This document shows, one piece after another, positions 5,067-61,360 of a stretch of DNA of 64,000 nucleotides (position 1 is its first letter; the number at the start of each line of letters is the position of its first letter). Origin of the DNA: Callorhinchus milii (lineage: Eukaryota). The stretch is taken from contig NW_024704761.1 of the NCBI RefSeq assembly GCF_018977255.1, positions 2,356,001 to 2,420,000 of the forward strand. Direction: 5' to 3'. Under the pieces are notes generated by a model that worked only from the letters and a program-made list of their open reading frames with translations, did not search any database and was not told the DNA's origin. Position numbers and translations under genes: made by a program.

Positions 5067-8000
5067 TTACTGAACGCTTTGAATGTCGTAAGCGACACAG
5101 CCACGCAATGTGAATCCCAAGTAAAATGAAACCCTTGTGCTTCCTGGTGGGATTGAACAATTGAACGCCCGATGGACAGGAAGCTGACTGTCTTTGCAAT
5201 GCCCTTGGATGTAAATCTTGTTGCCTTCAGCCGAGCCCTCAACCCGCTGCAAGCGAGCCTGATTTGCCTCCCAATCGTACGCTCCGTTGTTGCGAGACAA
5301 GTTTCTGTTGTGGACGAAGCGCTTCAGAAAACCGCTTCCAGATCCAAGGAAAAAATGAGGATAAGTAGGTTTCTTCACACTTTGAATATCCTTTATTTTG
5401 CCTTTGTACAGATTGTTCAGGGTAGTTAATGAGTCCGTTAAATACTCATCGTGTTTCTTCCCAGAAAGATCGTTACATTCACTGTCTGGCCAGTGCAACA
5501 GCAACAAGATGAAGTGAGGGATTGGCTTGTCAAAATCCAGCCTCTGTAGTTGAAGGCTGAGCTCATGGAGTTGCTCTTCAGAAACTTTGTCTTCCTCGGG
5601 AGAGGTGGGTTTGATCATGGCGAAGGCAATGCGTGATAACACATAATTTTCATTCAATTTCTCTTGTTGATTAGTATCCATATCTATGATTTCCCTCAAT
5701 TTGTCAGCAGCCAACGCAAATATTGTAGAGAATCTTCCACCACCGAGGTAATTAATCTTGCGATGTTTTAATAAGGCCATCTGATTTTCCATGTTTTCTT
5801 TTTTCAGCAGCTTTTTACTTGGACCATCGAGGGGACAGTTGAAGAAAGACGAGAATTGTCTTTCGTTTTTCTTTAAGTTCTCAAAAGCGGCCTGTACCAT
5901 GGTCTCTGTTCCCTCGTCAGGCTGGAAGTAAGCCATGTACACATAAATCCATTCCATTGATTTGCAAATGTTGTTGTGCAATGACTTCAATTGATCATGG
6001 AACGGGGCCCAGGAGACGTTTATTTCTTCTGGGACCCATTCAGTCACTAGATATTTAACAAGTTTGGGGTAGAATCCATTCTTGTACTCTGAAAATATAC
6101 CAAGTAATGGCATAAGCTGCACAATGTAACATCCAACCTCCACCTCACCAAAATAGCCGCTGTTATTCCAATCGGTCTCTGATTCCGATGCCTCTTGGGA
6201 TCTTTGGAAAGCATTGATTGCCTTCAGGGCTAACTCAATTGCTTTGTCGAGTTTACCCGGATCATTGATTGGGAAGGTTAGCGAATATAACCATTTCTTG
6301 TATACCTGACCCTCTGTGTCCAAAATATAAGAATTGGAAGGCAAAAGGATCTTAGCTTTTTCTATCCATGACTTCGCCTTTTCAAACTCTCCTGTTTTGC
6401 ATAAGAATCTAACAAGTTGCTGAATCACGATGGCATCTTCATCAAAACACTCGCAGGCCTTTTCCTGAACAGCCACTGCCTTAGTATTGCTTTCGCTCTT
6501 AGCTATGTGTGCGATCATGGGAGGGAATTTGAGTCTCTGTTTTGAATTCTTAGGTTTTCTCTGAACAAACAATTGCCTTATGAACTTTGATACTTGAGTT
6601 GTAGATTTTTGTTGAAAAAATATATCCTTCTCAAGAAGCTGGGTGACGACCTGACTTTGGTTGGGTTTTATCTGATCCAGTATTTCTTCTGCGACTTTGT
6701 GATGTATTACGCGGATGCACTGAAGTTCTGTTGTAGCTTCAAACAAGTGAGAGAGCAGAAAATTCATCGGTTTGTTTGAAGTGCTCTCAAAGCCTTGCGA
6801 AAGATCAGTTTGAAAGCTCGCATTTAAAAATGACACAAACTGAGATACGGTAATGTATGAATCCTGAACGTAATGATTTAGCAACGCAATGGATTGAAGC
6901 AAGCGACCCTCAACAGAAGAGAAGCCAATATCTGTCAGCAGGTCCTTCACAAATTTCGAGAGGACTGACTGGTTATATTCTTGGGTCATCAGAACGAATG
7001 TAAGGATGGCGTTTTCCTTAAACTGTTTTTTAAGCACTTCCAATTTCCTCTTAAACAGCGATGTTTCACGTGGGGATAAGTTGTAATGAACCATAACTCT
7101 TTCAGGCACCTTATACGTTTCTGGGTTGTTAACCCTCATGCAGTGTAGCAGAATGACTTGCAGATTTGAAACGTTAGTCTGGTGTCCCACTGCTCTCGTC
7201 AGCTGATCTTTTAGACTCATGATGCATTCCTCGTCACAATCTTCAGCAAGCAGGAGCATTGGCGAACTCTCATCCTTCTTTTCAGACTCCTGTAATTTGA
7301 CGACATGCTCACAGATAGATTTTTCAGGCTGTGATGTGTTGATGATCCCGCACCTCAGTCTTTTACTGAAGTCCCACAGAATGTGACGAGCTACAGTACT
7401 TCCTCCACTGCCGGGCTGGTGAGCTATCGTCACAGTTAGCACCGGTCCTTTTGAGTTTCGTTTCTCTAACGCCAACTTCAGTCGCCTTTCCACTGCCTTG
7501 TAGGCATCTCTTTGGATAATTTCTCCACAGTACTCATTATCTGCTAACCAGAAATTCATCCAGTTAACTTTACCACCCCGGTAAAAGTACATCTCTGTGT
7601 TTTTGATTTCCTCCTGACACTGTTCATCATTTTTATCGATGATGTACTCACTGTTGTACTCATTTGCTCTCAGTACTTCAATAAACGGCAGCAGTTCCTC
7701 ATAGCTTTTGTCGTCACGTAGCAATTGCCTAGTACTAATAGCTGAAGATTGTATGATCTGAATCATTGCGTCTAAATGGTTGAGTTTTGTTCCTACAATA
7801 CTGAGGTTGTTGATGGTGTCTCTGTTGCATGACTGGCGTACAAAGCTTACCCAGTTGCTGTAATTCTGTCTGTCTGCTGCAATGCATTTGATGCCAGTTT
7901 TGCTATTCATTCCTGTGTAGAATTCCTGAAATGCTTCTGCAAGTGGTTGATCCACAGTTGACACCAAGAGAAAAAGTACCTCGAACGAGCCTGGCGGAAG

Positions 8001-9134
8001 GATGGTTTTGCAAATTTGCGATATGGTATTTGCCAAAGTTTCCCTTCGGGTTTGCATCCAGGTCCCATCTTCACAGGGTTTGCGATCGCCGTAATCATTT
8101 TGCCCGTTACAAAATATCCAAGCAGTTTTTTGAAAAAAATCCTTCTTTACATCATCTGCCAATTCCCCGCCGTCAATGGTACAGTCTTCCAAGAAGTGGA
8201 AGCTGGCTTTGGGATAGCGACTGCCTAAACCTTTCATCTTAGAATTGGGGTCAAAATCGAAAACGCAAAAGAATCTCATACTTAACAAAAAGTTGAGATT
8301 TTCCAAATCCTCCTCTTTGCAGCTGTTGATTACGAGGACGTACTTCACCTTGTTGTTAATGTGCCTTTTCACACTGGCAAACAAGTTGGCCAGTTTCCTA
8401 TACACGTCATTGCTGACCAACTCTTCCCTCCGCTCAGCTTCTTCTCTCTCAAAGTCTCTGCCGCGTATGTAGTCGGGTATGCTTTGAATTTCATTACCCA
8501 CAGATATAGAAGCTGCGCCTTCTCTTTTGTAAATAACCCAAGGAGAACGTGTGTTCTTTTCCTTAATGTCCTTGAGAACGGGAAGGCGAACGGAATAGAA
8601 AATCCCTTGCACCACAGCTAACGATGGAACAATATCCACTTCAATAACAAAGCACTGTTGTTCCCCAGGATCACCACTAGTTACTTCTACAAATCTTGGC
8701 GGGCGAATTGAACGCTCAGCATGAAAGCAGTACTTGGGCATAAAGCATTTTTGGATATAAACATCTCGCGCCTGAACAAAAAGCGCTGGATCCCTCACGG
8801 GCACTCCTACAATTTCACCGTGTACATAATCTCCATCCCCATCTTCAACCCCAAAATGAATGGTCCCATTTGTTCTCGTGTTCATACAAGCTGCAGCGAA
8901 TTTCATAACGTCAGTCCCAAATTTGAGCCTCTGCTGATTCTTGTCTTTGAGGCACATCTTTTGGAAAGATTTGTACTCGTGACATGGAGTAATTAAATCT
9001 TTGCTACCTGTTTCTGGTGGAAGCACAGTGTTTCTTATATATTTGAATTCAGCATCTTCTGTGTCAAAAGGATGGGGATTACACTGATCATAATGCCTAC
9101 TTGTCCCTTTGGTTGATTTGGGGGGATTCGGCAT
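5067..9134 (-). CDS. SAMD9/SAMD9L-family protein lacking the N-terminal SAM domain (AlbA_2/Schlafen-like nuclease, SIR2-like, STAND P-loop NTPase, TPR, OB-fold), 1355 aa
   Basis: Single uninterrupted ORF with PETG..PCHEYKSF, ACMNTRTNGTIHFGV, FCVFDFDPNSK, WIFCNG, FYRGGKV, HQPGSGGSTVAR (Walker A-like), LLLAED (Walker B), NSYILDTEGQVY and C-terminal VSFYLGFTLRGCVAYDI. Splice acceptor with exon start at 9177 and an in-frame TAG upstream of ATG 9134. Candidate upstream donor GTGAGT at 9754. Confidence 0.92.
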   Translation of the reverse strand: MPNPPKSTKGTSRHYDQCNPHPFDTEDAEFKYIRNTVLPPETGSKDLITPCHEYKSFQKMCLKDKNQQRLKFGTDVMKFAAACMNTRTNGTIHFGVEDGDGDYVHGEIVGVPVRDPALFVQARDVYIQKCFMPKYCFHAERSIRPPRFVEVTSGDPGEQQCFVIEVDIVPSLAVVQGIFYSVRLPVLKDIKEKNTRSPWVIYKREGAASISVGNEIQSIPDYIRGRDFEREEAERREELVSNDVYRKLANLFASVKRHINNKVKYVLVINSCKEEDLENLNFLLSMRFFCVFDFDPNSKMKGLGSRYPKASFHFLEDCTIDGGELADDVKKDFFQKTAWIFCNGQNDYGDRKPCEDGTWMQTRRETLANTISQICKTILPPGSFEVLFLLVSTVDQPLAEAFQEFYTGMNSKTGIKCIAADRQNYSNWVSFVRQSCNRDTINNLSIVGTKLNHLDAMIQIIQSSAISTRQLLRDDKSYEELLPFIEVLRANEYNSEYIIDKNDEQCQEEIKNTEMYFYRGGKVNWMNFWLADNEYCGEIIQRDAYKAVERRLKLALEKRNSKGPVLTVTIAHQPGSGGSTVARHILWDFSKRLRCGIINTSQPEKSICEHVVKLQESEKKDESSPMLLLAEDCDEECIMSLKDQLTRAVGHQTNVSNLQVILLHCMRVNNPETYKVPERVMVHYNLSPRETSLFKRKLEVLKKQFKENAILTFVLMTQEYNQSVLSKFVKDLLTDIGFSSVEGRLLQSIALLNHYVQDSYITVSQFVSFLNASFQTDLSQGFESTSNKPMNFLLSHLFEATTELQCIRVIHHKVAEEILDQIKPNQSQVVTQLLEKDIFFQQKSTTQVSKFIRQLFVQRKPKNSKQRLKFPPMIAHIAKSESNTKAVAVQEKACECFDEDAIVIQQLVRFLCKTGEFEKAKSWIEKAKILLPSNSYILDTEGQVYKKWLYSLTFPINDPGKLDKAIELALKAINAFQRSQEASESETDWNNSGYFGEVEVGCYIVQLMPLLGIFSEYKNGFYPKLVKYLVTEWVPEEINVSWAPFHDQLKSLHNNICKSMEWIYVYMAYFQPDEGTETMVQAAFENLKKNERQFSSFFNCPLDGPSKKLLKKENMENQMALLKHRKINYLGGGRFSTIFALAADKLREIIDMDTNQQEKLNENYVLSRIAFAMIKPTSPEEDKVSEEQLHELSLQLQRLDFDKPIPHFILLLLHWPDSECNDLSGKKHDEYLTDSLTTLNNLYKGKIKDIQSVKKPTYPHFFLGSGSGFLKRFVHNRNLSRNNGAYDWEANQARLQRVEGSAEGNKIYIQGHCKDSQLPVHRAFNCSIPPGSTRVSFYLGFTLRGCVAYDIQSVQ

Positions 9135-9282
9135 GCTGCTCTTCGCTCTTAAAGTCTAACTTTTCTGGGTTGTTTGTCTGGAAAATAAAAGGTTTATTTT
9201 TCAAAGTCAAATGTAAATTTGCTTATTTATATCTCAGTTCCAACAGCAAGAAAAAAAAACATTTGTTAATCATTAGGTGGAG

Positions 9283-9657
9283 TCCTGGAGCTTAGACCAT
9301 CGCTTCATCTCACCTTGCAATCAAGAGGACTTGGGGGCTTGGTTTCCAGGCAGAGCGAAATGTTGGCTGAGTTTCTTTACTCCACACGCCTGTTCACCTC
9401 GCAGTAAGTAGGGACCGGCTGTTAGTCGATAGATAGAGCACTTTTCTGGGGGTAATAATCCTTTCAAAAAAAAAAAAAAATTGATCACTCAATCCACGAC
9501 TGTTTGTTTGTGGGACGCTGATATGCTCAATTAGCTGCCACTTTTCGCCAACAAAATATACAGTCAATTCACTTTACTTTATATTCTGTGAAGAGCTTTG
9601 ATACGTCTCAAAGACGTGATAAGGCGCTGTATTAAATGCGAGGATTTTTATTATTAC
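9283..9657 (+). mobile_element. tRNA-derived SINE in the predicted first intron of the SAM-less SAMD9 gene
   Basis: Colinear with the 12-390 copy and ends in (tta)n. Confidence 0.8.
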
Positions 9658-10325
9658 TCTGCCGAATCTGAAGTATCATTATTTGGCAAAGTTTAAATTT
9701 CAGTTTGAAAAAACAAGTTCCGTACTATTTACCCACAGTTTCTCTCCTACTCACCAATGAATTCCAAATTCTCACCAAATTCCTGCTGTAGAAGTCCTCG
9801 CTCTGTAACCGTTTCACTCCGTCCTCAGCTCACTCTGCTGCGCTCTCCTAACAGAACGATTCCAGCAAATAATTTATTTGCGATCCTCCTCAGTTCAAAA
9901 TGTAGCAAAACCAGTACCGCAAATAAATACTTTGGGTGTTGATGAAAGCTTCTCAGTTCCTCAGCATTCCTCAGCAATGCCTTTTGAAAACAGTAACACA
10001 AAGGTGTTTGTAGAAACCATTTGCTTCCCTGTCACGTGATTTCTTATAAATCGTTCCAGAGATAGGTTTCATTAACGGGTTGTGACACTGTAAGGAGGCA
10101 GTTCTACATAGATTTACAAACATACGTGGAAACGGGTTCTTCGCCCAAGCCAGGGCTTGCTCTGCTCTAAACGAGGCTCCACTTATTAGACAGATTTCTG
10201 CTGGACAATAATAACTCAGGATACAGCATATGGTTTGGGACACGATTTGTCAAGCGACTGACAAGATGGTGGAAGGTGAACTGGATGGACCTCGGTTCTT
10301 CCTTCGCCAGCAAATGTTTTATGTC

Positions 10326-11775
10326 ACCCCCTCGACCTGGTGATCACTCGGGGCCTCACCGTCTCGGACCTCAGCATCATCGACAAAGCGATCTCAGACC
10401 ATCGCTTCATCTCCCTTAACTCCTCAATTCCTCTCCCCAATGGCACCCAACCCACCTCCATTTCATACTGCCCCTGGAAAAAAATCTCCCCCTCCCTCCC
10501 TTTCAGCTGCCTTGGGAGTCATCTGAACTCCTTCCCCTTTGGGCTTCCTCCCGCAATGACCTATCGTCCTCGGTCACCCTTCTCCACAGCTCCCTCCCCT
10601 CCACTCTCGATTCCCTCACTCCCTTCTCTTCCCGAACCTTCTCCTACACACGCAAATCACCTTGGTACACCAGCCATCCCCGCTCCCTTGAAGCCCAGGC
10701 ACTTTGCACTGAGCGCTCCCGCCTTAAATCAAACCTAACTGTCCACCGGCAGAGCTGGCTGGACCATGTCAAATCCTACTGCTCCGCCCTTGCCTCCACC
10801 AAATCATCGTTCTTATCCAAGACAATCTCGGAGGCTAGGACAACCCCAGACTCCTCTTCTCCATCACAAACCGAGTCCTCCGCCCACCCTCTCACGGCTC
10901 ACCCATCCTCACCTCAAATGCAAACTGCCAGGCGATGCTGGACTTCCTCGAATCCAAAGTGGAGGGAATCCGCTCAGCTGCTCTGCCACTGCAATTACTA
11001 CCCCCCTCCCATTCCAGCCCCTACCGACCCCTCCCTCCACACCTTTGAACCCGTTTCATCACCACCATAATCTGTATGAAACCCACCACCTGCTCCCTCC
11101 ACCCCATCCTAACGCCCCCCTTACCTCCCAGCTCCACCTCCTTGTCCTCTACTCACTGACATCGTAAACCTCTCCCTGTCCTCTGGTACTGTTCCCACCC
11201 CTTTAAAAATCGCTGTCATCACTCTTATCCTTAAAAAACCCTCCCTGGATCCTTCTCTACTCCCAAACTACCGCCTCATCTCCAACCCCCCCTTCCTCTC
11301 CAAGGTCCTGGAATGAGTTGTTGCTTCCCAGCTTCGCTCCTTCCTCTCCCGTCACTCCCTTCTCGAACTCCTCCAATCGGGTTTCCGTGCTGCTCACAAC
11401 ACAGAAACAGCTCTGGTCAAAGTGACAAATGACATTCGGTCCATCTGCGACCAGGACTCCCTCTCCTCCTCAGTTGAACGTCAACGAGGCCGAGGCTCTC
11501 CTGATTGGCTCCCGTGAGCACCTCCTCACCTTGGGCGCTAACAGCATCACCATCCGTGGTTGCTCAGTGCAGAACCTTGGGGTCTTGTTTGACCCTCAGC
11601 TATCCTTTCTACCCCACATCTGCGCCATGACCCGCTCTGCCGTTGCCCGGCTCCGACACTGTCTCACACCGCAGGCTGTCAAACCCCCCCATCATTACAT
11701 CGAGGCTCGACTCTGCTAACTCACTGCTTGTCGGCCTCCCCAACTCCTCCCTCCACAGGCTGCAGATCATCCTGT
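10326..11775 (+). mobile_element. Degenerate L2-clade LINE ORF2 fragment
   Basis: Endonuclease end DLVITRGL..ISDHRFI and RT-region peptides LKKPSLDPS..NYRLISN.PFLSKVLE, QSGFRAAHNTETALVKVTNDI, NLGVLFDPQLSF, SRLDSANSLL.GLP; frameshifts and an internal deletion. Confidence 0.88.
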
Positions 11776-12030
11776 GGCCCCTAGTTACGGACTCCCCAAC
11801 AAGTGAGAACAGCCTATTTATTGCTAATCTTATTGAACTCTTTTATAATTTTAGGTTCTCTTTTTAGTAAAAAAATGCCTAACCTATCTGGTCTATTCTG
11901 ATAGCAGTAACCTGCCAGCCCTAGTATCATCCTAGAAAACCTGAAACATACTCTTTCCATCAATGTTATATCCTTTTTATAGTGTGGCTCGCAGAATTGG
12001 ACACAATGCTCCAAATATGGTGGATACCAA
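11776..12030 (-). mobile_element. CR1 LINE 3' RT fragment
   Basis: PYLEHCVQF.PHYKKDITLMERV..RFSRMI.GL is typical of the CR1 ORF2 C-terminus. A related piece is at 21865-21963, and CR1-type 3' tails are at about 2045-2125, 10225-10325 and 25345-25447. Confidence 0.75.
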
Positions 12031-13157
12031 AGTTTTATACCTTGTTCTGCTGATGCCATTGGGAACAAAGATTCTTACCACTTCAATTCCAGACACACGG
12101 AAATTTCCACAGTGACGTACACATGTGGAACTCACAGTCTGGTTTGGTTACTCTTAAGCATGTCGCGGGGTTTATGCATGTGTCAGACACCCGGCTGACT
12201 AAAATAAATTGAATAAAATGTAAATCAAAATTATATTCTTGTTATGAAAGTTATTTTATTTAGAACAAAAAGATGATTGATGTTATTCTGATGTTAATGT
12301 TATTCCATACAAAGTTAAAATATCCCGTGGATACATTGTAATACAGGGTAGGAAACAGAGCAAAAAAACACTAACAACAGGCACGAAACAGATTAAATGT
12401 GCCAACTGTTTTGTATCTTTCCAAAAACAATCACAACTAATACATGAAATAAAAGCATTAGATTAAGTGAATCGCCTCTGTGTTTGTAAATAAAACCTTT
12501 AATACCATGACACCTTTTATACAAGATATATAGGTATAGTCCTCAAATATCCGGATCTAGAACATTTGAGAAAAGAATAGAATTTAAAAGCACAGCTCAG
12601 AAAGTTTATTTTCAACTGATGTTTTAAAAAAAACTATGTTTTTGAATAATAACTGGGAACACCTTATATATGACGTGCGATAGAAAAAGCTGTGATGGAA
12701 AATATTATTTGAAAACAAAGCTGAAGTTCAAAATATTATTATTACCCTTCCACTACAAATCAGATCGAACCCCACACTCTACTCACGTTCAAACACATTT
12801 CATAAAGTATTCCAGTGCAAGTGAACAAATTGAAATTCTCTAAATTTACAAGACAGAAATTCTTACATAGCAATGGGTACTTACTAACAAAGAGTTGCAG
12901 TTCATAAAACGTTGGTCATTTTCAAAAGGTAGAGGCAACGTTTACTCGGCACTTCGTAATATAGGAACAATTTCAGGCTTGAGTAGACCATTGATCCAGG
13001 CAATGATCCATCCAAGTTTACGAGTCCTCCCTCAGTGATCATTCAAAAAAGGAAAGCCCTTTGGGGACCAATGTTTCCCTATAGCTCTGCTCCTATATTA
13101 AGGAATTAATCTCATAAGCCTTTGTTGCACTTGTCGTACATCAACGGTTTGGACATG

Positions 13158-13301
13158 CTTTCATTTAGGCTCCTATCAGTAAGCTTTTCAAGGGCACTGC
13201 TGTGAAGGATCCTATTAAGTTCAAATCCATTTCCTAAGAAAAAGCGAGTGTAGATTCCCCTTTTCCTTGGAGCTACAATCTTGATTTTGATGTCGTACAA
13301 T
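13158..13301 (-). pseudogene. Relic fragment of a SAMD9-family C-terminal coding region
   Basis: Gap-free 144-bp match to 13842-13985 (about 24 mismatches by manual count). Encodes LYDIKIKIVAPRKRGIYTRFFLGNGFELNRILHSSALEKLTDRSLNE versus LYENKIKNVAPRKKRLYTPFFLGNGFGLHKFIHKSTLEKLSDRSLNE. Confidence 0.85.
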
Positions 13302-13600
13302 CTGGGGATCCAGGAAGTGGTCATACACAAATATTGTAATCTGATTCAGGTACATTCTTGGAATAACTAGAATGCATAAACATGTGATGCATAGAGAGAT
13401 ATTTGGGGCGGGCAAATTTGCCGGGCTATGAAGAGAGCGCGGGTGACTGGGACAGCTCTTTCAAGGAGCCAGCATTGACACGATGGGCTGAATGGCCTCT
13501 TTTTGTGCTGGATAATTCTATGATTCTATAACTGAAACCAACCAAAACCAAATGTAGCGAGCAATTAGAGGAAATGTAGCATAGATATGAGTTTTCCAGT

Positions 13601-16600
13601 TTAAGCTTTCACTTTGATATCATAAGCAACAAATCCATTGAATGTAAACCCCAGGCAAAAGGTTACATTCTCATTGCCATGAGGCATGGAAGCAAAATGC
13701 AATGGCAAGATACTGATCTTGCTTTGTTTGCAATGACCACGTACAAAAAGGTTTTCCTTTTCAGTCCATCCGTTTACACGCTTCAATTTCTTGATGATAT
13801 TGGGATTCCTCCACACGTCACCAGTCAGCCACTTCAATCTTCTTTCGTTTAGGCTTCTATCCGAAAGCTTTTCAAGTGTACTTTTGTGAATGAACTTGTG
13901 AAGTCCAAATCCATTTCCTAAGAAGAAGGGAGTGTAGAGTCGCTTTTTCCTTGGTGCTACATTCTTAATTTTGTTTTCGTACAATTTTTTCATTGTTGTA
14001 AGTGCTGTCTTCAAGATGGCCTCTTTATCCGAACTGGATTCTTTGTCACAGATTTCATCTGGCCAAAACAACAGTGTAAGTAAAAAGCAGGCATTTGAAT
14101 TGTTCAGCTCTTTTTCTTTCTGAAATCGCAGACTCAGGTCCCGTAATTTCCGGTAATCTACCAGTTTTGGGGACCCTGGTGCAACACAATTCAGTGTGAT
14201 ATGACACATAATGTAGTTAATAAGATCAGTTAGTTCCAGTTTTTCTTTTTGAGGATTTTCGGAATACAGGGAGATTATCTCTTCCAATTTTTGAACAGCT
14301 CGAGCAATCTTCTGATCCGACAACTGTGAAAGAATCATTGTAACATTTCCACCACCAAGCTTGTAAATTTGAAGGCGTCTTACCAACGGAGACAAAGAAC
14401 TGAATTCCTGGGGTAAGTCTTCTTCCAGTTTTGCAAAATCGCAGGCAAAGAAGCGTGCATATACTGATGCTTTTTTCGTCAACCATTTTCTAGGATTGTG
14501 CAAATGTTCTTCTATTTTGCTCTTTTCCTCTTCATCGTCGTCAGTTTTGTCTGTTTGAAAATAGCTAATATCTTCAGATATCCATTCAAGTGCTTCATAC
14601 ATTCCTTTTTGCAGGCCCTTCAATTGGCCGTGGAAGCTTCTCCAGGGTTTTTGAATTTCATCAGGAATCTCTTGGCCCAGCAGGTAATGTACTAATTTTT
14701 TGTAGCACCCATCCTCGTCTTTTGAAAAGATGTTCAGCAGAGAAAGAAGTTGCAGCAGATGACATCCAACTTCTACTTCACCTACAAAACCAGAGTTATT
14801 TATAGAATCTAACTCTGACTGAGATGCCCTTTGAGCAGCTCTGAAGCACCGAATTGCTTTTAGGGCTATTTCTATTGGTTCTTTCAGCAATTCAGGAGTA
14901 ACCACTTCACTTTGACAACGTGTTATATCAAATTTCAAAAAGAGCTTTTTTCTGTACACTTGCCCTTCAGTGTCCAGAATATACGAATTGAATGGTAACT
15001 GCTTCCTTGCATCTTCAGCCCACAGTATGGCTTCGCTAAAATTTTCCTGTGTGTATTGTAGTCTTGCAAGCTGCTGTGCAAAAAATGGATCTTTCCCAAA
15101 ACTTTCATACCCTTGTGTCAAAACTTCCACTGCCTTTTCTGGAGTTTTCTCTTTATTGCGAATATCTTCAATAAGTGGTGAAAAAAACGTATCAGCGCTG
15201 TCACCTCTACTTCTTTTGTGACGTTGTAAGAACAAGTTTCTGATGGATTTGTAGAACTCATCTCTGGCAAATCGGTGTTTGAAAAATGCCTTTTCCTGGA
15301 GAAGTTTCATCGCAATTTGACTCAGAGGCTGATGTGACAACTGCTGTAGTACTTCCTTTGCTACCAGCGGATGTACTATTCGTACAGAGCGTATCTCAGT
15401 GCTATCGTCATTGAAGTGTATAAACAAAAGACGCGCCTGGTCAGTCAAGGAAGATTCGAAACAGTGCTGGCGCAGATGATTTACTTGAGGACCAAGTCCC
15501 AAAAATGCCTCACAGTGAGATAGTGAAATGCTTGAATTGGGCACGTAGTCATTCAGCAAAGCAACGTATTTTATCAACTGAGTGGCAAGAGAAGAGTGGT
15601 CAATACCTTCCAAAAAGTGTTTCACAACATTTTCGATGTAGTCCTTCGGAAATTCGTCACTAAGTAGAACAAATGTCAGTATGAACTCCGGCTCAAACTG
15701 TTTCTCCAGTTGTTTACGTTTAGCAGAAAATGATCTCTTTTCTTGCTGAGTGAGCTTGTGGGTCACAGCAACTGTTTCCAGGGGTCTGTTCTTGCACTGT
15801 TTTTCAGGGTTATGGGATCTTCTGCAGTTCAAAAGAATGAAGAAGGTTCTCATAGTATTATCTGTTTTACATGTGATCGCAAATCCTAATTCCTGCTTAA
15901 TCTTATCAAGGTAGTCTTCATCAGAGTCTTCAACCAACAGCAGCACTGGGATACACTGATCGATATCACTTTCTTCATACTCAAGCAGTTGGATGGCATG
16001 CTGACAGACTACTGCGGCTTGATATGACTGCTTGACAACTGCACATCGCAGCTTCGTCCGAAAATTCCACACAATCTGTCGGGCTACGGTGCTTCCTCCA
16101 CTGCCTGAATGATGAAATATGTGGACTGTGCTAACTGACCGCTTCACTGTCTGACCATTGACCATAATTCCATCTACAATCCTAGCCGCATCAGTGTAAG
16201 CATCCCGCTGTATAACATCCTCACAAAAATTTTTTTCTCCTAGGAAGAAATTCAGCCACTTGACTTTGCCTCCACGATAGAAGTCACTCTCTATCTCTGT
16301 GATTTTTATTTTCCACTCAGAATCCTGTGGATCAATTTTGTAATCTTCACACTGATTCACACACAATATCTCAAGAGATGACATTCTTTCTTCATCTGAT
16401 GTTTTGAGTAAACACATGGCTTTTGTAGACACTTGTAAGTATCTGCCACTCTGCTTTGATATTGGCTGCATACTCTTGACTGTGTCATTTACATGACTAA
16501 GTTTCATTCCAACAATACTCATTTCGTTAATAGTCTCAATACTGCAGGAGACCTGTGCAAGATTTGCCCATTTTTGATGATTTTTGTCACACTCTGCAAT

Positions 16601-19338
16601 ACATATAATGTCATTTCTGCCATTCATTTCTGCATAGAATTCATGGAAGGTGTCTACTATTGGCTGCTCTATTGGTGACAACAGCAGAAAAAGCACAACA
16701 AAAGAACCATTTGGCAGAATATCATTGCAAATCACAGACACTGTTCTTTTCAAGTGCTTCTTTCTGCTCGTCACCCATGTACTCACATCACATGGCTTTT
16801 CATCCCCATCAAAATCATTGCGGCCATTGCAAAATATCCAACTAGTTTGATCAAATAAGCACAAGCGACTTGCGAAGTCACTGGTGCTGTTACCATCATT
16901 AGCATAGTCTTGTAAGAAGTGAGTATTTGCTGTATGGTGTTCCAGGTATTGCTTGCAAAAGCCATCGGTTTTAGAATCAGGATCAAAGTCAAAAACACAA
17001 AATATCTTAATGTCCAACAAGAAATCTAAATTCTCTAAATCCTCTGGTCTGCATTTGTTAGTGACTATTACATACCATAGGCTGTTATTCATGTATTTCT
17101 TGCCACCAGTTAGAAGGAGTTTTAACTTTCTTCCTTGGTCGTCACAAAGGTTATTCCCGGGCTCTTTTCTATTCTCAGCTTCTTCTCTTATTTTGTCTCT
17201 AACCTGCACATTTGAAATAAAGTCATCCTGGTCTTCTTCACTGATTGGCTCAGTGTTCGCTCCACTTCTTCTGTAGATTCTGTAGAGCTTATCAAATTCT
17301 ATTTTGTTTTTGTTTTCACTAAAATTTGGAAGTCGAACTCTGTAAATTTTGTTCCTCACAATGTCTATTAACGGTTTCACATCAACCTCAATAACAAATC
17401 TTTTCTCACCCCCATCCCTGCTGATGACTTCTACAAATCTGGGTGGTCGAATGGAAAGTTTTGCATCGTCTGAATAACGCTTGAAGCATCTGTCTATCAA
17501 ATCTAAAGCATCGACATAGATGTCTTGATCTTTTACAGGTACACCAATTATTTCACCATGTGTGTACGCCGAGCTTTCTTGCCTATCCATGATCCCAAAA
17601 TGTATTGTACCATTGGTTCGCATATTCATGCACCCAGAACTAAATCTGATAACTTCACGTGCAAACTTTATTTGTAGTTTTAGTCTGTCCAGCTTTACAG
17701 CGTTGTCAAGAGATTTATATTCATGACACGGACAAATTAAATCTATGACACCAGTTTCTGGTGGAAGAACTCGGTTTCTTACGTACTTAAATTCTATAAT
17801 GTTCTCGCCAAATGGATAAGGTTTGCACTGACTGGAGGATGGATGTTCCACCACAATATTTTGGTCCTCACTCGTACCAGTAGGCTGTGAAGCAGCAGAA
17901 CTCTCAGCTTCATCTGATGCTAACTCAGTGATGTTGTGCTTGCTTTTCACTTCGCTGACTATATTCTTTGTCTGGGGCATCTGAGTAGGAACCTTTTGCT
18001 GCTTGTTTTGTACTGAGGAAAAGTCTCCTCCATCCTTTCCTTCCCTTTTGCTACAATCAGCTATTTCTAATCTCTGACTGTTCAACAGTATATTTCTTCT
18101 TTTCAAAATCAGCTTGATTTGACCTCCTTTTAATTGCAGGTTTTTAAGAAAGTCTTCGTCAATCACTTCAAGCACAGCTCCAGTTACTTCTTCCTCGTAC
18201 AATACCTGGACGTGTGCATCTTTGATCCCAATACATTTTAACCAGGTTTTCACATGATCTTCATTCCATTCCTGCAAACGCAGCTTGTTTAACTCTTCTA
18301 AACAATAATTAAAACCAGAAACAGTCTGAGTGAAAACGTTTGGTGCAGTTTTTAATACAGTCACACTATATTAATAATAATACATCTTTCATTTTGATTG
18401 CAATTGTGCCACCTCCACACCCCCCCCACCCGCTGAAGGTGCTGATTCATTTTCTTTTGGTCAGCCAGGTATCTGACATGTGCAGAAACTCATGATGATG
18501 AGCCAGGCTGGGCTGTGCTGAGCGATGCCCTGGATTACTGCGGACCTGCCTGGCTCAGGAATTGGACCAGAGCCTGCACAGAGGATGGAACTCGGCTCCA
18601 ATAATCCATTGTCAATCACATCAACTTGGAGCCAGTTCTCCCTTCTCCCAAGGGAGAACTTATCCCCCACACCCTGGAAGATAGTCTCCGGTTTTCCTTT
18701 GGAGACATCTGACAAACGTGGGTTTGGGCCCTCACTAGGTGAACGGCAGATACCGGGAACGCCCTGTGAGCTTCCTGGTGGGCAACACAGCTCAGGATGG
18801 AATGCTGAATCCATGCTACGATGCTAGGGGTGTTTGATGGATATATCCATTTCAAGAGGCCATCCTGCATATGTGACCATAAACAGGGAGTATTGACAGC
18901 AAGAGTATTAACTAAAATCATCAAACAGGTTGCCAAGAAGGTGTGTCAGTTGTCTCAATGTGCTTTTAAAAGGTCATAAACAACTGCATTTATTTGAGGT
19001 AATTAGTGATGATGGATCTTGCTCTGGGCGTGCTGAATAAATAGATTATTATAATAATTCTTGCAATTAATATTGTGTCTTGTCACATTGTCCAGATGTT
19101 TCAAAGCCCTTCACAAGGTTTTACTGTGCAATGTGGTGACTGGTATTACATTCAAACTTAACATTTCATGTGGCCTTTTTGTCACAGAGCGGCTTCACAG
19201 GTCAGTTGAGAAAAAAACATTGACAAGTACAGGAGGTAACTAACACACTTTACAGTTTGTACTTTTTAAAATGTGTTTAGTAAATAAATATTTGATTTTA
19301 ACTCTTTAAACTGACTCGCTGTTCAGATACCTACCCAT
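13601..19338 (-). CDS. SAMD9L: Full-length SAMD9/SAMD9L-family protein (SAM, AlbA_2, SIR2-like, STAND NTPase, TPR, OB), about 1566 aa; coding parts 19335-19338 and 13601-18297
   Basis: 1587-codon ORF with SAM domain (EWNEDHVKTWL..LYEEEVTGAVL), AlbA motifs (PETG, CHEYK, GCMNMRTNGTIHFG), HHSGSGGSTVAR, VLLLVED, RIVHPLVA and NVTFCLGFTFNGFVAYDI. Exon 19335-19401 ends ATG-G/gtaggt and splices to tttag/AA at 18297, giving MEELNKLRL. SAMD9 versus SAMD9L orthology cannot be assigned because that split is mammalian. Confidence 0.93.
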
Positions 19339-19806
19339 TGTTGTTCCTGGAGATGTTAGATCTGTCAACGGTGATGCAACGTGCAGTTCAATTTCTATGA
19401 TCTGGGGCAGAAAAACAAATTCGTGAAAGATTTTTTTTAAACATTGAGTTCTTTATAAATCATCAATCGACTGCTAAAAGTAGTGTGACAGTGATTTAGC
19501 AAATTGTCCTTCAACCTCCGAGAGGTAGGTTTGACTCCAGCTCATACTGATAGAATGAAAAATCTGAATTTAGAGTCAATTGGACATGGTACACACAACA
19601 CAGAACACCTGGAAAGCTGAACATTTCACTCTCAGTTGTTGACTGTGGAAGAGCTGACATTGGCACAATTTGAATGCTCTTGAGGCTGAGGTGTAGTCAA
19701 CTCCTGATCACTTGATTTTGGCTTAACTTGTCACTCTCACTTAAATCATCGTGTTGCATGCATCCCAGTTGCATTTTATTTACAGAGCATATGTTATTTA
19801 TTTTAT

Positions 19807-24700: not shown

Positions 24701-25998
24701 GCTCGTGACTGTAGATTTAAAGTGAAATAAACCTCATAGGGAATAAGTAAGGTTCTGTGGTGACATCTCTCACTGAATCGGACCAACAGTGCCAGTGCTG
24801 GGGGTTTGGGGTGAAGTGTTGTTTGTGTCGTTAAACAAGGAATCTTGAGCAGTGCGGTGGGGATGGGGGGAAGGAGCTAAGTGAGAGAGAGGGAAAAAGT
24901 CTCCCATTTCAATACTGTTTTTCCCCCTTCCCTCCCACTGGGACCAACGACAGCCCTACAATCTTCCCAGCTGGTCCAGCCCAGCCTGGGCATCACGTCT
25001 GCCGCGAGATGGTTCTTACTCACCATCGGAGATTCCATTCTGTGATTTTAATTAACGGGGAAAGTCGCTTCCTGTTTATGGGCACAACGTGTGAACGCGA
25101 GACTGAAGCTGAAATCTGGACCCCAGACATGAACATGCCCCCAGTAATGCTAAGCGCTAAATATATCTTCAGGACTAGCAGTGGACCTTTCTGGTTGGCC
25201 AACACAGTAATCATAGAAATTTAGATCAATGTTATTTTGTCGCCACAAAACCAAGAAATATTCAAATCTGGAAACATTTGCTTTGTAGGCCAACCAGAGA
25301 GGGTTTGGTTGCTGCCCGGGACACCCCACCTCACCCCACATGTTCTTATATGGTTTAGGACAAAGCATGTCAAGCGACTACCAGGATGGTGGAAGGTGAA
25401 CGAGATGGACCTTGTTCTTCTTTCGCCAGCAAATTCTTATGTTCTTAACGTGTCAATGTGAACGTCTGTCTCACCCCAATCTCCAAGCGAAGCCCACCCC
25501 AGCATAGAAAGCCCCCCCACAATCAGCACAACCCCCCATCTCCTCCCCACCCCAGAGACTGAAGCTTCCCTCCGCAGCCCCCGTCACATTCCATGTCCTT
25601 CTACCATCGTTCAAAAACAATTCCCTAAACCATGGAATGATTTAATAGACTCTGAGGGAAAAAGTTCAAGAAGAGAGTTTTTTCCTTTCCACCCTTTCCC
25701 TTTCCCCTCAAACACCCTCCTCGCTCGCACGTGTTAAAAGATGTTCCTGTCATTGTAAAAGCCGCAGGAACCCTCATTTTCTTCTCTGGGTCAGGTTTCC
25801 TTTCACAAACAGCTGGGAGGCTTTTTCCACCCCCCACCATAAGTAAGGCACTTATTATCTTTGGCCACGTCCAGGTTCCGAGTCAGTCGTCTTTGCCAAA
25901 CTCAGTCTCTCCTCGCACTGCTCCGGCCAGCGGGGGCCATGGCTAGAACGCGTCTCGCAGCAAATTCACAGCTTCACTGTGTCGCCTTGCGCTCAGCG

Positions 25999-41475
<15,477 letters not shown>

Positions 41476-55200: not shown

Positions 55201-58200
55201 TTGGCAAAGTTATCCGATGCAGTGAAAAACTGAATTGTTGTCAAGGTGGCAGGAGGAACTCAGAAGACATAAAAATAAATTTCGGGCTCCATCTCGGTTT
55301 ATATTTTTGTACCATCTACTGATGAGCCATGGAGCACCTTTGATGGACAGTTAAGTGAAGGAAAGGGAAGTTTTGCATTTAAATTTAGGAAGGTTGGTGT
55401 AATAGTTCTGAGCATGTTAAATGTATGAACTGGTTATGAATTTATTCTAACACAAGTGAAGCTGTAACATCTCAACAATTGATGTGTGCCTCCTACAGAT
55501 AATCAAGCAGTGCAAAAACAACCAATTGCTCTTTGATGTTGAAATGAAGGTCTCAAGTTGCAACATATCAGTATTCTGCAAAGGCAGGCAGAGAAAGATC
55601 ATCTGAGCTTTGGATAAGCAGCTGTGAAATCTCATTTAGAGCGAATGTTTCTCTGGAAGCTAACCTACTCCAACATTTAGCACAGCTATGTCAAATGTTA
55701 CAGACAAAAATATAACACTGCACATAAATCTTCCTTAAATACTTCAAACACTAATATAGTACAGATTTCATAGCTGCAGAAAATATTTCTGCATCGCAAT
55801 TTAGTCAATTAACTTTCAGTCACCCTTGCAATTGGAATATTTTTCATTTCCACGGTTGCTATGCATAATTGTGCAGAAATATCACTTGGTAATTTCAATG
55901 ATTTTTCCACTTTACAAATTCAAAATGAACATTAATGCAAACATTACTGAAACCCCCAAGGTACCAATTGCGTGCTATTCAATCACGTTTATTCTTGGAA
56001 TATTTTCTTTTGAAAAGATCAAATTTAAGGTAAATGGTTTCTGTCTTCCTTTTAAATCCCTCCGAGACACATTATTTCCAAGCTGAGAATACAGGCAAGT
56101 GACCCACTTCCAGGCATCAATAAATGTCACTCTTCAAATGGATGAAAAAAANTGTAAAAGGATTTGCACTTCTCACTCAATGCTTCAAAATACCATCATG
56201 ACCATTCAATACTTGTACATCAAACAGAATGAGCAGACTCTGAAAGTAAAACATGTCTGATAAGTTGACTAAGATTCATGTCCTTTGAAATGTACTCTAA
56301 ACAAACCAGTTAAGACTCGTGATTTCTAAAGTTTGGACTTTCAGCAGAAGGTATCAGAGAATGTCTCAGCGTACTGAGATACTAAACAAGAAACAGTTCA
56401 GCACAACACGTAGTTATGTAATTGTTTTCAGACGAGGTGCAAGATGCAGTTAACATTTTGTCTCTTCACGAAGACTACTGCCTACAAGACAGAGGGAAAA
56501 GTCAATTCTGATGATGAAGCTCATCATTAGTATTGTGGAAACACTTTGATTAATCTTACAGGTTTCTGGATTTACATCAGTGCAGTATCTTAGCTTACCT
56601 TTGAGTCTGAAATCTTTGATAACATCAAAAAGCCCACGAACACCACAGATGAATTTTAATTGTGCTTACCTTGGTGATTAACTGAAGGTTTTGAAGCTTG
56701 ACAGATTCTGGGCACAGCAACTCCCATATCGAGTTCCGTCAAAGTCAGCTCATTCATAAAATATGGCAGCTGAAATGGAATAAATATTTGTATTAAGCAG
56801 AATATGAAAACATCATCAAGACTCATTTTTTCTCCACTTGCTCTTCCACCCACAGTTAGAAATAAATGATTGAAATCTCTCCTGAATAATCTTTTCTTCC
56901 CTCTTTATCCAAAATGAAAGGAACCGAAAGCAAATGTAATACCTCTAGGAATTCTGGGCCACAAAATATAAATAAGCATTCACCCACCAAATTTCCTTTT
57001 GTAAAAGATCTTCAATTTTCCTGCTGCAATCTACAAAAAGCAATCCTTGGTGCTTCGAAATGGAAACGCGCCTCATTCTTTTTAATCTTGGTAAATTTAT
57101 CAAGGGTGCCATAGGATGTGACAAATCTGTATACACTTCACTTCATTGTAAGTGCACAAATACCCACATCCAACCCAGAACACTGGTCACGAAGAAGAAT
57201 TAGCATATTCCCACTACAATTTCAAAGTGCTGGCTTTTATTGGTAATGAATTGAAGTTCTTGGCTGATTTAACTCAATGAAAAACCTAAAACTCTACTGA
57301 CCTCCACTATTCCCTGACATACCACGCTTTTACTGGGCTTAAACAAAATTCAGCTAAATGTTGGTATAGTGGAATGTTCTCATGCAATCTGTAAATTAAT
57401 TTGTTACATAGATAACAGAAAAAAGTTATTAACACAGAGTAAATACCCTAATCTTGCTGAGTTTCATCTGGATCTTTCGAGACACCAAGTTAGACCAATA
57501 CTTCTCGCCTAGAAAGTCCCAGAATATCCTCCCAAGCAGTGCATTGACCCAAGCCACTTGCTGGTCTGTGTCATCCTTCTGACCTATTGACAACTGATTT
57601 AGAAAAAAATGGGCGATCAGTATTCATAAATATAGCAACCATGGAACAGTGAAATAGTAGGGATAAAGCAAATGACAACTACAGATTTAATAATTTTAGT
57701 TTTTCTAAAGTAATCTTTGTAATATTTCACTGTATCAAATTTCCACTTTACAAGTAGATTGCTAGGATATCTTTGGGGCTAAACTACTCTAAAGTGACAT
57801 GCCTGGCAATGCAAGCCTTGGTTCTTGCCAACTTCTGCCTACTTTTCTGAATTAGGTAAGAAGGGTTCGTTCCTCTGAGGAGAGTGTGCGCGCTCCTTTG
57901 CAGACAAATGGGTTATTTCTATGTGTGGGTGGCATAATTAAGTGGAACTTTGTCTGGTTTCAATGTTCTTAAGCACAGTAATGGCATGTGTTAAAACACC
58001 CAGCTGACCAAAAAGAGTCTGGAAGTAGAAGTTCAGATCCCTACTGTAACTGTTCTTTATACCTGTTACAACTGCTTGCAGGGCTATGGGGAGAGCGTGG
58101 GGGAGTGGGATTGAATTGGATAGCTCTTTTCAAAGAGCTGGCACAGACACGATGGGCCGAATGGCCTCCTTCTTTGCTGTATAATTCTATGATTCACCTG

Positions 58201-61200
58201 GCCACTGTGATTGGGTTGGGAAAGCAAAGACATAAAGTAAAACCAATTGATTTTCACTTACCTTTTTACAACTAGTGGGACTACTTTCTGCACTTTGGAC
58301 AGGACTTAAGATAGGGCTGCAGCTTTCTTGAGGAATATATTTTGCCATGTACACATTATAGTCCAGAAGCATTTTCTGGCGGACTGCAGCTGTTAGATCT
58401 TTCGGTTTAGATTGTGTCACGATTTCTTCAACACTTCCCTTGCTGCTGTTGCGGCTGTGGGTGAGTTTTCCTGACTGACTGTTGTTCCTACTGTGTGATG
58501 GGATGAATCCTGAAGTCCCCATTGTAAATGAAAACATAACCAATTAGGTACCAAAGCAGCGTTGCTTATTCTGAAATACTATTCACACACTTTATACCTA
58601 ATCTCAAGACCAAGACAAACTATGCAAAGAGGAACCCATTAGGTAAATCCCTGAACTAAAGCAAAACATACCCAGTGTGAAACCCCTGCACTTCAGAGCT
58701 CAAAATTGTGAATTTTCAGGTTTTTGGGGGGAACAAAATTGCACTATTCCTCTTTTACCATTGAATCATTTAATGAGTTGAACTCACTGGAAGCTCAGCC
58801 AAGCGGAGATTTAAGCCGTCACATTAATGGAACAAATGCAATGACAGCAGTGGAGCAACACCAGTAAAAATGAAGTGAAATGGTAAGCCTTGAAAAGCTT
58901 GTAATTACAACATTAAAGTCAGAATTTGAGTTTGCCTTTGATAATTTAACTTGACAATAGGTCATGTACTTTACTTATAAGTTGAACATATAATAATCCT
59001 TGCTTTTGACCTCGTGTCTTATCATGGGGTCAGGAAGTCGCAAAGCACTTCACAGTCTTAATTAAACAAGTGCAATCCTGAGCTAGATTCCTGGAATAGG
59101 GTAGATACTTAATTAGTACAATACAGCATAATCTGTCAAATTTTTAAAATCTGTAAAATTTACATCAGTATTTATTCCACTAAGAGACCAAATTTAAGAA
59201 ACAACTTACAATTAACCAAACTGATTGATGCCCGTTACACTGTTAAAGCTTACCTTGCAAAGCATTTATATTCAGTCAACACTGTTTTAATGTCCAAGAT
59301 AGTGTTTCAATGAAATGCCCTACGTTTCCACCTTCCTGTTAAAAAACCTCAGTAGTTCAAGTTGCAAAGGAATGATGGATAGAAAACATAGGGTTACCTG
59401 TTATGCCTCCCCCTAGACTGATTAGTCGTTTAACATCAGTTTTTCCCTTTGAAACTAGAAGGAATCTCCTGAACCATTCCTCTTTTTCTCTGCCAGTCCT
59501 TCCAAAAAGATATAGAACTTGATCCTTCAGAGAAGTTGGCTTCACAACATCTTGTGAAGGGACCACTTTTCTTTCCTCAAGCGCAACTTCTGCTTTCTCC
59601 AGAGGGGGCTTTTCTTCTGCATTTTCTTTCTCTGTCTGGGTCTTTGATATAAAGTCATCCTGTCTGGCAAGTTCAATGCAAATTGGATATTTCTTATTCC
59701 ATACTCTCTTTCTGGCCAGACTCTTTGGAACTAAATGTACCTGGAAAAATTAATGCCAAAAAGGAGAAGAGAAACCTTAAAACATTATAGTTTAATTTTC
59801 AGGATTTATAATATGTGGATTTCTATTGTAACAGATACATTATTTGCACAATGGTTATAAGAGGATGAAAATCTAAAAGTCAAGTATTACACAAGTACAG
59901 TAGAACACTCTCACAAAGCTACATACAGTTGGACTCTATAACATTCCAAGCCACCTTATAACAGGGCACAATCAAGAGTATTTATTCACTAAAAAATAAC
60001 CCTAAGAACACCAAAATATAGGCACAGCATGTGGAATTCTACCTATGGGACCATATTGCATTAACAATCCACTGTGAAGAAACAAGTCAGCCATGTCACG
60101 AACATTCAAACAATTACCCAATGATCTGGTTGGAAGACAGATTAAACCGGGGGAGTAGCAAAAATAAGTAGCTTCAGTCAAGCTCATTTTTCTTCCCATG
60201 CCCCAAATATCACTTGTCAAATCAAGAATTTGACAAGAATAGAAGAAAGCACTGATAGAGGGAAGAGCTTAGGCCTTTCCTATTTATCTTCCTCACAACC
60301 TTTAAAATGAGTAGAATGGCAGCACTAACGAGATTCTCTGTATTTTAGAGCAGTGATGGATCCACCTTGAGTGGTAATGGGGAAGGATAGATTGATTTAG
60401 CTAGAAATTATATTTTGATAATGACCATAGGGGAAAAACACAGACTGTAATTTATGAGTCCAGCTCTACTTTCAGAAGTGTAAATCAAAATAAACCTTGG
60501 GCCAGCAGCAATGTTGGCACACAAATACAGTAGCGTGGGCAAGGCACTCTTTGTGTCACTAGAATGGAAAGGAGGCACATCTGGTAGGAATGGGTAAACA
60601 TGAAAGAGTCAAAGGTGCTGATTGCCCTCAGTTTCCCAACTAATTTAATCTCAAACTCCACCTCCTTCAGTAGAAACTAATCCAGATCACACAGAGGGTG
60701 AGGCCTAAATACTCAATATAGACCGAAATCTTTGGCAATCTCGCCAAAGTACACTCACAGATGTTAGCAGACAGCTCTTGAAAGGCAAGGGCATTGGAGA
60801 TGAAAGGGACTATTGGGGGCACAGGGCGGTGGGCCACCAATATACACTGCACTATGACGATTTCTACCAGCAATTACCTCAGGTAATGGAATACCTATAT
60901 TGACTGTAACACAAAGAAGGCACCCAGCATAGGGCAGAAACGTGCCCATGCAAAGAGAAGAACCAAGAAAGTAGTCCTCATCTTACTCCCGTGCATCTCC
61001 AGGTAATCCGGTTCAAGTCAGCTGTCCAGGTTATGGTGACCCCAGACCCAAAGGAATATGCATAACTATACAATTTTTGGGGGTTATACTCTTACAAATG
61101 TGCATATTTAGCATTAACAGCATATTTAAATAGCTTAAGACCAGACGTTTGGTACCTACCTTACTGTCAGATAGGTCATAAATCTTCTGACTTATATACA

Positions 61201-61360
61201 TGACTTCTGGCTTAGCCTCGTTAAAAGAAGCCCTTCGGGAAATATTCTTATTAGGTTTTGAAAGCCTTAGTACACTCCCCTCAAGACGAATGAAGACAGA
61301 ATGCGTGAGTGTAGCATGGTAAGTTTCAGGATCATAATTGCAAATTTCATTCATCCAGCC
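49299..61360 (-). CDS. TEX2: Testis-expressed protein 2 (PH-like and SMP lipid-transfer domains), last ten coding exons; 5' part lies beyond the window
   Basis: Exons 61160-61360, 59398-59740, 58262-58509, 57447-57593, 56670-56769, 54563-54695, 51236-51361, 50719-50928, 50178-50298, 49299-49424 (TGA), all phase-compatible. Motifs GWMNEICNYDPETYHATLTHSV, LYLFGRTGREKEEWFRRF, AWVNALLGRIFWDFL, LPYFMNELTLTELDMG, NVPPPPTDRIWYGF, FVMPNMDD. Confidence 0.96.
49486..49596. mobile_element. Tc1/mariner-type MITE in the last TEX2 intron
   Basis: Imperfect 26-bp terminal inverted repeats cagggtgaccaaaaagtcgagatacc / gttatcaagactttttcgtcaccctg, flanked by TA and TG. Confidence 0.7.

Follow-up and report, generated by a model that had tools for sequence, protein, structure and literature searches.

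The SAMD9-family gene pair and its transcripts

The 64,000-nucleotide window analysed here (the whole stretch, from contig NW_024704761.1 of the chimaera Callorhinchus milii) contains two long single-exon open reading frames (ORFs) on the minus strand, which we call gene A and gene B. Gene A is a real, expressed and old SAM-less member of a known antiviral family, that of human SAMD9, and gene B is a full-length paralog that carries the SAM domain. The coding regions lie about 4.4 kb apart, each gene has its own first exon, and the two proteins are 40% identical from residue 17 of A onwards. The product of gene A corresponds to XP_007886940.1 (Callorhinchus milii), with one residue different. 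A first-pass annotation of the window had described a 1355-residue ORF that begins just before the AlbA domain, and this is what we find, as similarity to gene B and to human SAMD9 sets in at residue 17–18. The long ORF of gene B is open from 18370 to 13601. Its 3' untranslated region (UTR) contains a decayed partial copy of the C-terminal coding sequence of gene B (13133–13303, minus strand; 83% DNA identity over 144 bases).

Four sequencing runs (X1–X4) were treated as RNA because they contain GT..AG joints; no run is recorded as RNA. In X1 and X2, which come from one study, gene A contigs run from exon 1 (to 9755) through exon 2 (9460–9314) into the coding exon, which they enter at 9177; the introns are GT..AG, the whole ORF is included and no SAM exon is present. 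This bears out the expression of gene A, and the joint 9177/9314 shows that the acceptor AG at 9179–9178 is in use. X3 and X4 cover gene A in part only. Transcripts of gene B were likewise found in X1 and X2; contig depth differs between the two genes in these runs, is unsuited to ranking them and was not used. One contig joins gene B to gene A by a read-through splice that adds no coding sequence.

The assembly lacks one base behind position 9140, which is present in all three RNA-like and all four unspliced DNA-like runs that cover the site (X3 has no coverage there). The first-pass annotation had placed an in-frame TAG between the acceptor and the ATG. That TAG (9158–9156) is in frame in the assembly only and moves out of frame once the base is restored, but an in-frame stop remains, the TAA at 9151–9149, and with it the conclusion that an exon joined at 9177 cannot add a SAM domain to gene A. 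AGs resembling acceptors exist 3' of the TAA; no use of them was seen among the contigs listed, a set that leaves 25 weaker joints aside. The leader has six upstream ATGs, which all lie distally in exon 1, and each opens a short frame only. The donor of exon 1 is preceded by ATT-G, where the start exon of gene B has ATG-G, and the acceptor of exon 2 is supplied by a high-copy repeat. A promoter scan of gene A for interferon-type elements returned short partial motifs only.

Table 1. Features of genes A and B in the window. Residue numbers are those of gene A unless marked as human SAMD9.
Feature	Position	Strand	Remark
Gene A ORF, SAM-less SAMD9-family protein	5067..9134	-	1355 amino acids; covered by a single RNA contig in X1 and in X2
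OB domain	5070..5354	-	
OB loop, residues 1320-1334	5133..5177	-	human 1557-1569
TPR region, residues ~881-1260	5355..6494	-	least conserved part; two clade-wide deletions
Delta domain and NOD	6495..7739	-	8-residue clade-wide deletion in Delta
SIR2-like domain, residues ~241-465	7740..8414	-	
SIR2 helix, residues 360-370	8025..8057	-	human 514-524, activation dimer surface
AlbA/tRNase domain, residues ~17-240	8415..9086	-	
5' UTR portion of gene A coding exon	9135..9177	-	acceptor AG 9179-9178
Site with one base absent from the assembly (error or rare allele)	9140..9141	.	7/7 covering runs
TAA, in-frame stop 5' of gene A ATG after restoring the missing base	9149..9151	-	
Gene A non-coding exon 2	9314..9460	-	no ATG; 5' 89 bases repeat-derived
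Gene A non-coding exon 1	9755..10267	-	true start undefined by contigs
Read-through splice, gene B 3' UTR to gene A exon 1	9979..12884	-	one X2 contig; shorter flank 30 bases
Gene B coding exon, full-length SAM-bearing paralog	13601..18297	-	1566 amino acids including start exon
Gene B SAM domain	18077..18289	-	SAM profile, 112 bits
Gene B start-codon exon, phase-1 intron	19335..19401	-	joint 18297/19335 in 4/4 RNA-like runs

A SAM-less clade in cartilaginous fishes

Orthologs of gene A (A-type proteins) were found in 15 further cartilaginous fishes, giving 16 species across chimaera, sharks and rays when cluster members are included, and in all of them the frame is open over 1355–1442 amino acids. 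The best matches to gene A are shark and ray proteins of 1359–1442 amino acids, with 51–59% identity for 11 among the matches listed. A-type proteins form one clade (support 100/100) that roughly tracks the species tree, and 355 columns are invariant in 13 A-type sequences. Selection was assessed by protein rates and by the within-species ratio of nonsynonymous to synonymous polymorphism (pN/pS). A-type proteins evolve 1.5–2.3 times faster than B-type proteins in 21 species pairs, and none of the 23 coding variants of gene A is a stop. Four amino-acid variants at residues 1006–1022 in the TPR region (6070–6118 of the window) occur together in one run, X7; they form a divergent haplotype, which could reflect diversifying selection.

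The A-type clade branches outside B-type proteins and their bony-vertebrate orthologs (97/98; this support and the 100/100 above refer to 20 of 56 sequences). The first root was one long outgroup; the placement was kept when 20 more outgroups were added, in FastTree only, with a support of 0.98. An approximately unbiased test against a clade of A plus B gave p 0.0115, with one long outgroup and a group that was named after the tree had been seen. An origin of the A lineage before the split of jawed vertebrates is therefore possible. The closest relatives of human SAMD9 in this genome are two genes on another contig (C2), and both A and B fall outside the clade that holds the C2 gene. The scores to human SAMD9 are 470 bits for A, 650 for B and 1597 for the C2 gene. 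The two C2 genes (52.57–52.60 Mb; L010 and L011) are canonical SAMD9/9L-like genes with 97.8% identity, one intact (1676 amino acids) and one with a frameshift near residue 750–770; this may be a recent duplicate, or an assembly indel of the kind seen at 9140.

Pfam makes no SAM call in gene B at E 0.5, and by itself detects almost nothing. Because Pfam missed the SAM domain of gene B, we built a SAM profile from the N-termini of B-type and outgroup proteins; B-type proteins are bound to match such a profile, which served here to show absence in A. The profile found SAM in 0 of 16 A-type and 13 of 13 B-type proteins. Of the 145 matches that are not A-type, 137 carry SAM, and the remaining eight are mostly gene models that begin within it. 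A six-frame search of the window and the adjoining 20 kb downstream detected no SAM other than that of gene B. Across the genome the profile has three matches, gene B and the two C2 genes, and two separate queries agree on four SAMD9-family members. As most branches around the A-type clade carry SAM, its loss in A is derived, and A became SAM-less secondarily, among vertebrates. With the missing base restored, the gene A leader is similar to, and in the same phase as, the N-termini of shark orthologs, which start about 13 residues earlier; sharks have Val or Leu where gene A has its start Met. The SAM domain together with its linker (about 130 codons) may thus have been deleted inside the coding exon just behind the acceptor, and the chimaera would later have lost the upstream start, so that a Met about 13 residues further in is now used.

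Co-occurrence was counted in protein databases, with the A-type and B-type clusters listed in full. Both types were found in nine species. A-type proteins without a detected B-type protein come from seven of the 16 species (five rays/skates, Mustelus and Scyliorhinus canicula), and three carpet sharks have B-type proteins with no intact A-type listed. Two broken A-type models (P0247 and P0249) resemble carpet-shark sequences, and 'B alone' in carpet sharks may reflect decay or poor annotation. A and B have consecutive RefSeq accessions in three sharks, B first, and lie on equally sized contigs in seven. These accessions, together with the 15 other orthologs, uphold the first-pass picture of a SAM-less paralog that is intact, under constraint and arrayed in tandem beside a full-length gene. 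In Pristiophorus, one A-type protein is accompanied by two of B-type (P0016 and P0013). In one catshark gene model, P0129, the A-type gene and an ETS (Spi-C-like) gene are joined into one; an ETS gene of this kind was not found within 25 kb downstream of gene A here.

Domains and conserved residues

Residues 18–1353 of gene A align to human SAMD9 (E 1.6e-139), and the core order AlbA, SIR2-like, STAND NTPase, TPR and OB is found in gene A; an N-terminal SAM is usual among vertebrate members of the family but lies outside this core. An AlphaFold model of residues 240–1355, which leaves AlbA outside, has a predicted local distance difference test score of 82, and its best structural match is human SAMD9 (9zjr; E 4.8e-57, template modelling score 0.67).

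With human numbering taken from PDB chains and residue roles as described in the literature (PMC10246899, PMC12331169, PMC13600222), E41, E53, D75 and D98 of gene A correspond to E184, E196, E218 and D241, and K55, K71 and K78 to K198, K214 and R221. The E184, E196, K198 and K214 positions are kept in all 16 A-type proteins. The E218 position is E in 14 and D in two, and that of D241 is D in 15 and N in one, so that the catalytic set reads E, E, E, D in 13 of 16 and E, E, D, D in gene A. The R221 position is K or R throughout, which leaves the three tRNA-binding positions basic in all 16. Asn at the D241 position also occurs in the B-type proteins of Rhincodon and Stegostoma, the A-type case being Mustelus (P0015, P0172, P0009); it is known from SAMD9L of horses and carnivores (PMC12331169).

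In the NOD region gene A keeps H572, Walker A (G577–T580), Walker B (E631–D632), the sensor R667, R808 and H811. The positions of human H737, Walker A, D800, R982 and H985 are conserved in 16 of 16 A-type proteins, and that of R837 is R in 15 and K in one. All 16 share the variant Walker A in which Gly replaces Lys, with a His upstream of it (H572, G577-G578-S579-T580). Conservation is highest in AlbA, where A-type proteins retain 55 of the 70 sites that are conserved among B-type and bony-vertebrate proteins; in the TPR region the figure is 56 of 101. Clade-wide deletions in A-type proteins adjoin human R459 and, in the Delta domain, K643, with others in TPR2 and OB, which suggests that the lock may have been rebuilt. 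The E974/K1026 lock was left unused, as its register differs between two aligners.

Changed activation surfaces

Activation of human SAMD9 needs SIR2/SIR2 and OB/SIR2 contacts, and R522A impairs its function (PMC13600222). Both surfaces differ in A-type proteins. The mean net charge of the SIR2 helix is +0.75 in A-type versus about +5 in B-type and bony-vertebrate proteins, and the R515 position within it is Glu in 14 of 16 A-type proteins. For the OB loop, the mean net charge is +3 in A-type versus −1 in B-type proteins. The helix shows the strongest charge shift between A and the others, reached by 0.15% of 1328 11-residue windows, and the loop falls within the top 2% of 1324 windows; for both figures, the segments were named from the paper, the charge measure was picked after seeing them, and the sequences are related. 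The shifts of helix and loop run in opposite directions, which may mean insulation from B, preference for B or weaker activation. Insulation of A from B is the likely outcome to be read from these residues, and we favour it because A occurs without B.

Function of gene A

More likely than not, gene A encodes a latent antiviral tRNA nuclease that works alone, independent of B. By analogy with human SAMD9, A would rest closed with ATP bound, open upon infection, self-associate via SIR2 and OB, and cut tRNA, with tRNA-Phe the likeliest substrate, thereby stopping translation. The charge shifts are likely to have re-keyed the activation surfaces, such that A and B would fire independently and present two different targets to viral antagonists. 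The human protein fits a nuclease without SAM: residues 156–1589 of SAMD9 cleave tRNA-Phe, deletion of SAM and linker had a minor antiviral effect (PMC13600222), and SAMD9L without SAM still folds and dimerises (SAMD9L preprint). A is probably not one half of a required pair with B.

Several observations weigh against independent action. The paralogy of A and B to human SAMD9 is a distant one, so that function is carried across a deep split, and the tRNase activity of A is a likely prediction from its residues and from human SAMD9. Gene A has Asp at the E218 position, a conservative change at a site that is reported to be strictly Glu in mammals (PMC12331169). The pN/pS ratio of 0.59 (16 nonsynonymous, 7 synonymous) does not differ from neutral (p 0.30). 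The pair is kept together in nine species, the absence of B is one from protein databases rather than genomes, and a search for short B-type proteins listed at least 27 matches. Finally, the R522 position is basic in none of the 16 A-type proteins, as opposed to all 13 B-type and all but one of the 26 bony-vertebrate ones. That of E1568 is Arg or Lys in 12 of 16 A-type proteins and acidic in none; every one of the 13 B-type proteins has Glu there, as do 25 of the 26 from bony vertebrates. Through these changes activation by the human route may weaken or need a partner. The SIR2 residues contacted by the OB loop are not named in the text of the papers, and a mutual contact of SIR2 helix and OB loop is putative.

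The first alternative is a non-obligate partnership, in which A would join B in mixed dimers and shift B's activation threshold up or down; we consider this rather unlikely. Such dimers would agree with the tandem pair in nine species and the consecutive accessions in three, with transcripts of both genes in X1 and X2 and the one read-through contig, with the loss of the R522 equivalent and the top charge shifts at helix and loop, and with the asymmetric, concentration-dependent dimers of human activation (PMC13600222). They agree poorly with A lacking a detectable B in seven of 16 species, with an effector site kept in all A-type proteins, and with a rate of evolution in A that is about double that of B. 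Human R553, Q565 and R593 are absent from B-type proteins too, and because of this the human interface is not directly readable onto the A/B pair. A slightly less probable version would make A an ancient SAM-less subunit whose charge-reversed helix and loop dock on B and set its threshold, the two together forming a tandem-encoded, partly co-transcribed heteromeric STAND tRNase.

It is improbable that A serves mainly as a decoy that soaks up viral SAMD9 antagonists. On human SAMD9, the N-terminal 385 residues are the binding site of poxvirus C7-family proteins, and the central region that of K1/CP77 (PMC13245274). The faster evolution of A and the variant cluster in one run would also fit, but nearly all 16 proteins retain the catalytic acids and the lysines that bind tRNA, for which a pure decoy would have no use. 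To our knowledge, no shark-virus antagonist of SAMD9 has been described, which we count against a decoy.

Slow decay of a dispensable copy under relaxed selection is marginally less probable again. It would account for the three carpet sharks with B and no intact A-type listed, the two broken A-type models, a pN/pS not significantly below 1 and the apparent loss of the original start in C. milii. The frame open in 16 species, the invariant columns and the new in-frame start speak for a maintained gene.

The first-pass annotation had proposed a sensor-helper pair like plant paired NLRs, and our results do not favour it: an obligate pair of this kind is very improbable. The old linkage of two divergent STAND genes resembles RGA4/RGA5, RRS1/RPS4 and Pik-1/Pik-2, and A and B share the genetic clustering that is among the defining features of paired NLRs (PMC9528088). 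However, A and B stand head-to-tail with separate first exons, unlike the usual, though not universal, head-to-head arrangement with a shared promoter. Neither has an integrated decoy domain, since A has less than, and B just, the ancestral layout. Effector site and P-loop are kept in both, and the protein databases reveal no one-to-one co-occurrence.

A SAM domain on an unseen upstream exon, its loss being an artefact, is hardly credible and already largely refuted, as the assembly indel in the coding exon and the rare isoforms that contigs miss are set against two non-coding exons in the RNA contigs, the in-frame TAA, no SAM in the region and 15 independent orthologs that also lack it.

Relation to known SAMD9-like systems

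The SAM-less gene A can be compared with several known systems. Human SAMD9 and SAMD9L share with A the order AlbA-SIR2-Delta-NOD-TPR-OB, catalytic and ATP residues, fold and a tandem paralog pair, but both carry SAM, whereas A has neither SAM nor linker, several deletions and changed dimer surfaces; their ortholog here is the C2 genes and not A. The nearest relatives of A are the gene B lineage of sharks, ray-finned fishes, amphibians, reptiles and birds (36–41% identity), which has the same phase-1 start-exon layout and differs in carrying SAM, in slower evolution and in having a SIR2 helix that is basic and an OB loop that is acidic. Avs9 of bacteria is likewise a SAM-less AlbA-SIR2-STAND-TPR-OB protein, with AlbA-dependent toxicity, but it is about 15% identical and of convergent origin (PMC12680541), while the SAM loss of A is secondary. 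Human cells are reported to respond with interferon to zebrafish SAMD9L, and OB to be required for oligomers (PMC12015307).

The same protein, XP_007886940.1, is listed in the supplement of Mekhedov, Makarova and Koonin 2017 (PMC5445408) with AlbA, SIR2-like, AAA, TPR and OB and no SAM row, and that paper notes that SAM is absent from some vertebrate members. Transcript check, clade, tandem partner and residue analysis are not part of the material available from it, and the available part of Legrand 2025 does not mention sharks or cartilaginous fish. We found no paper on the A-type clade, the tandem pair, the interface change or SAMD9 heteromers, in a search that most subscription papers fell outside. 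The SAM-less architecture itself has been known since 2017; what is new here is the 16-member SAM-less clade, its kept residues and its rates.

Gene A thus amounts to a natural deletion experiment, in which a SAMD9-family lineage endured without its name-giving SAM domain, consistent with the human deletion data. The lineage predates the split of chimaeras and sharks, about 400 million years ago, and so long-lived a SAM-less lineage leaves the role of SAM open. As the clade-wide changes lie on surfaces that the 2026 structures tie to activation, A and B are suited to the study of paralog specificity in SAMD9 dimers.

Neighbouring genes and further observations

Upstream of gene B lies a kinase gene (25846–41300, minus strand; Pkinase match), which we take to be IRE1/ERN-like. 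The locus next to IRE1 reveals a second SAMD9-like lineage in vertebrates, one to which the human genes are not orthologous. The record of one B-type protein of Pristiophorus carries the IRE1 name. At 12306, 19861, 20898 and 21217, two or more runs share additional single-base departures from the assembly. The region 57000–62000 (minus strand) contains a gene with a weak PH_SMPa match, presumably TEX2-like.

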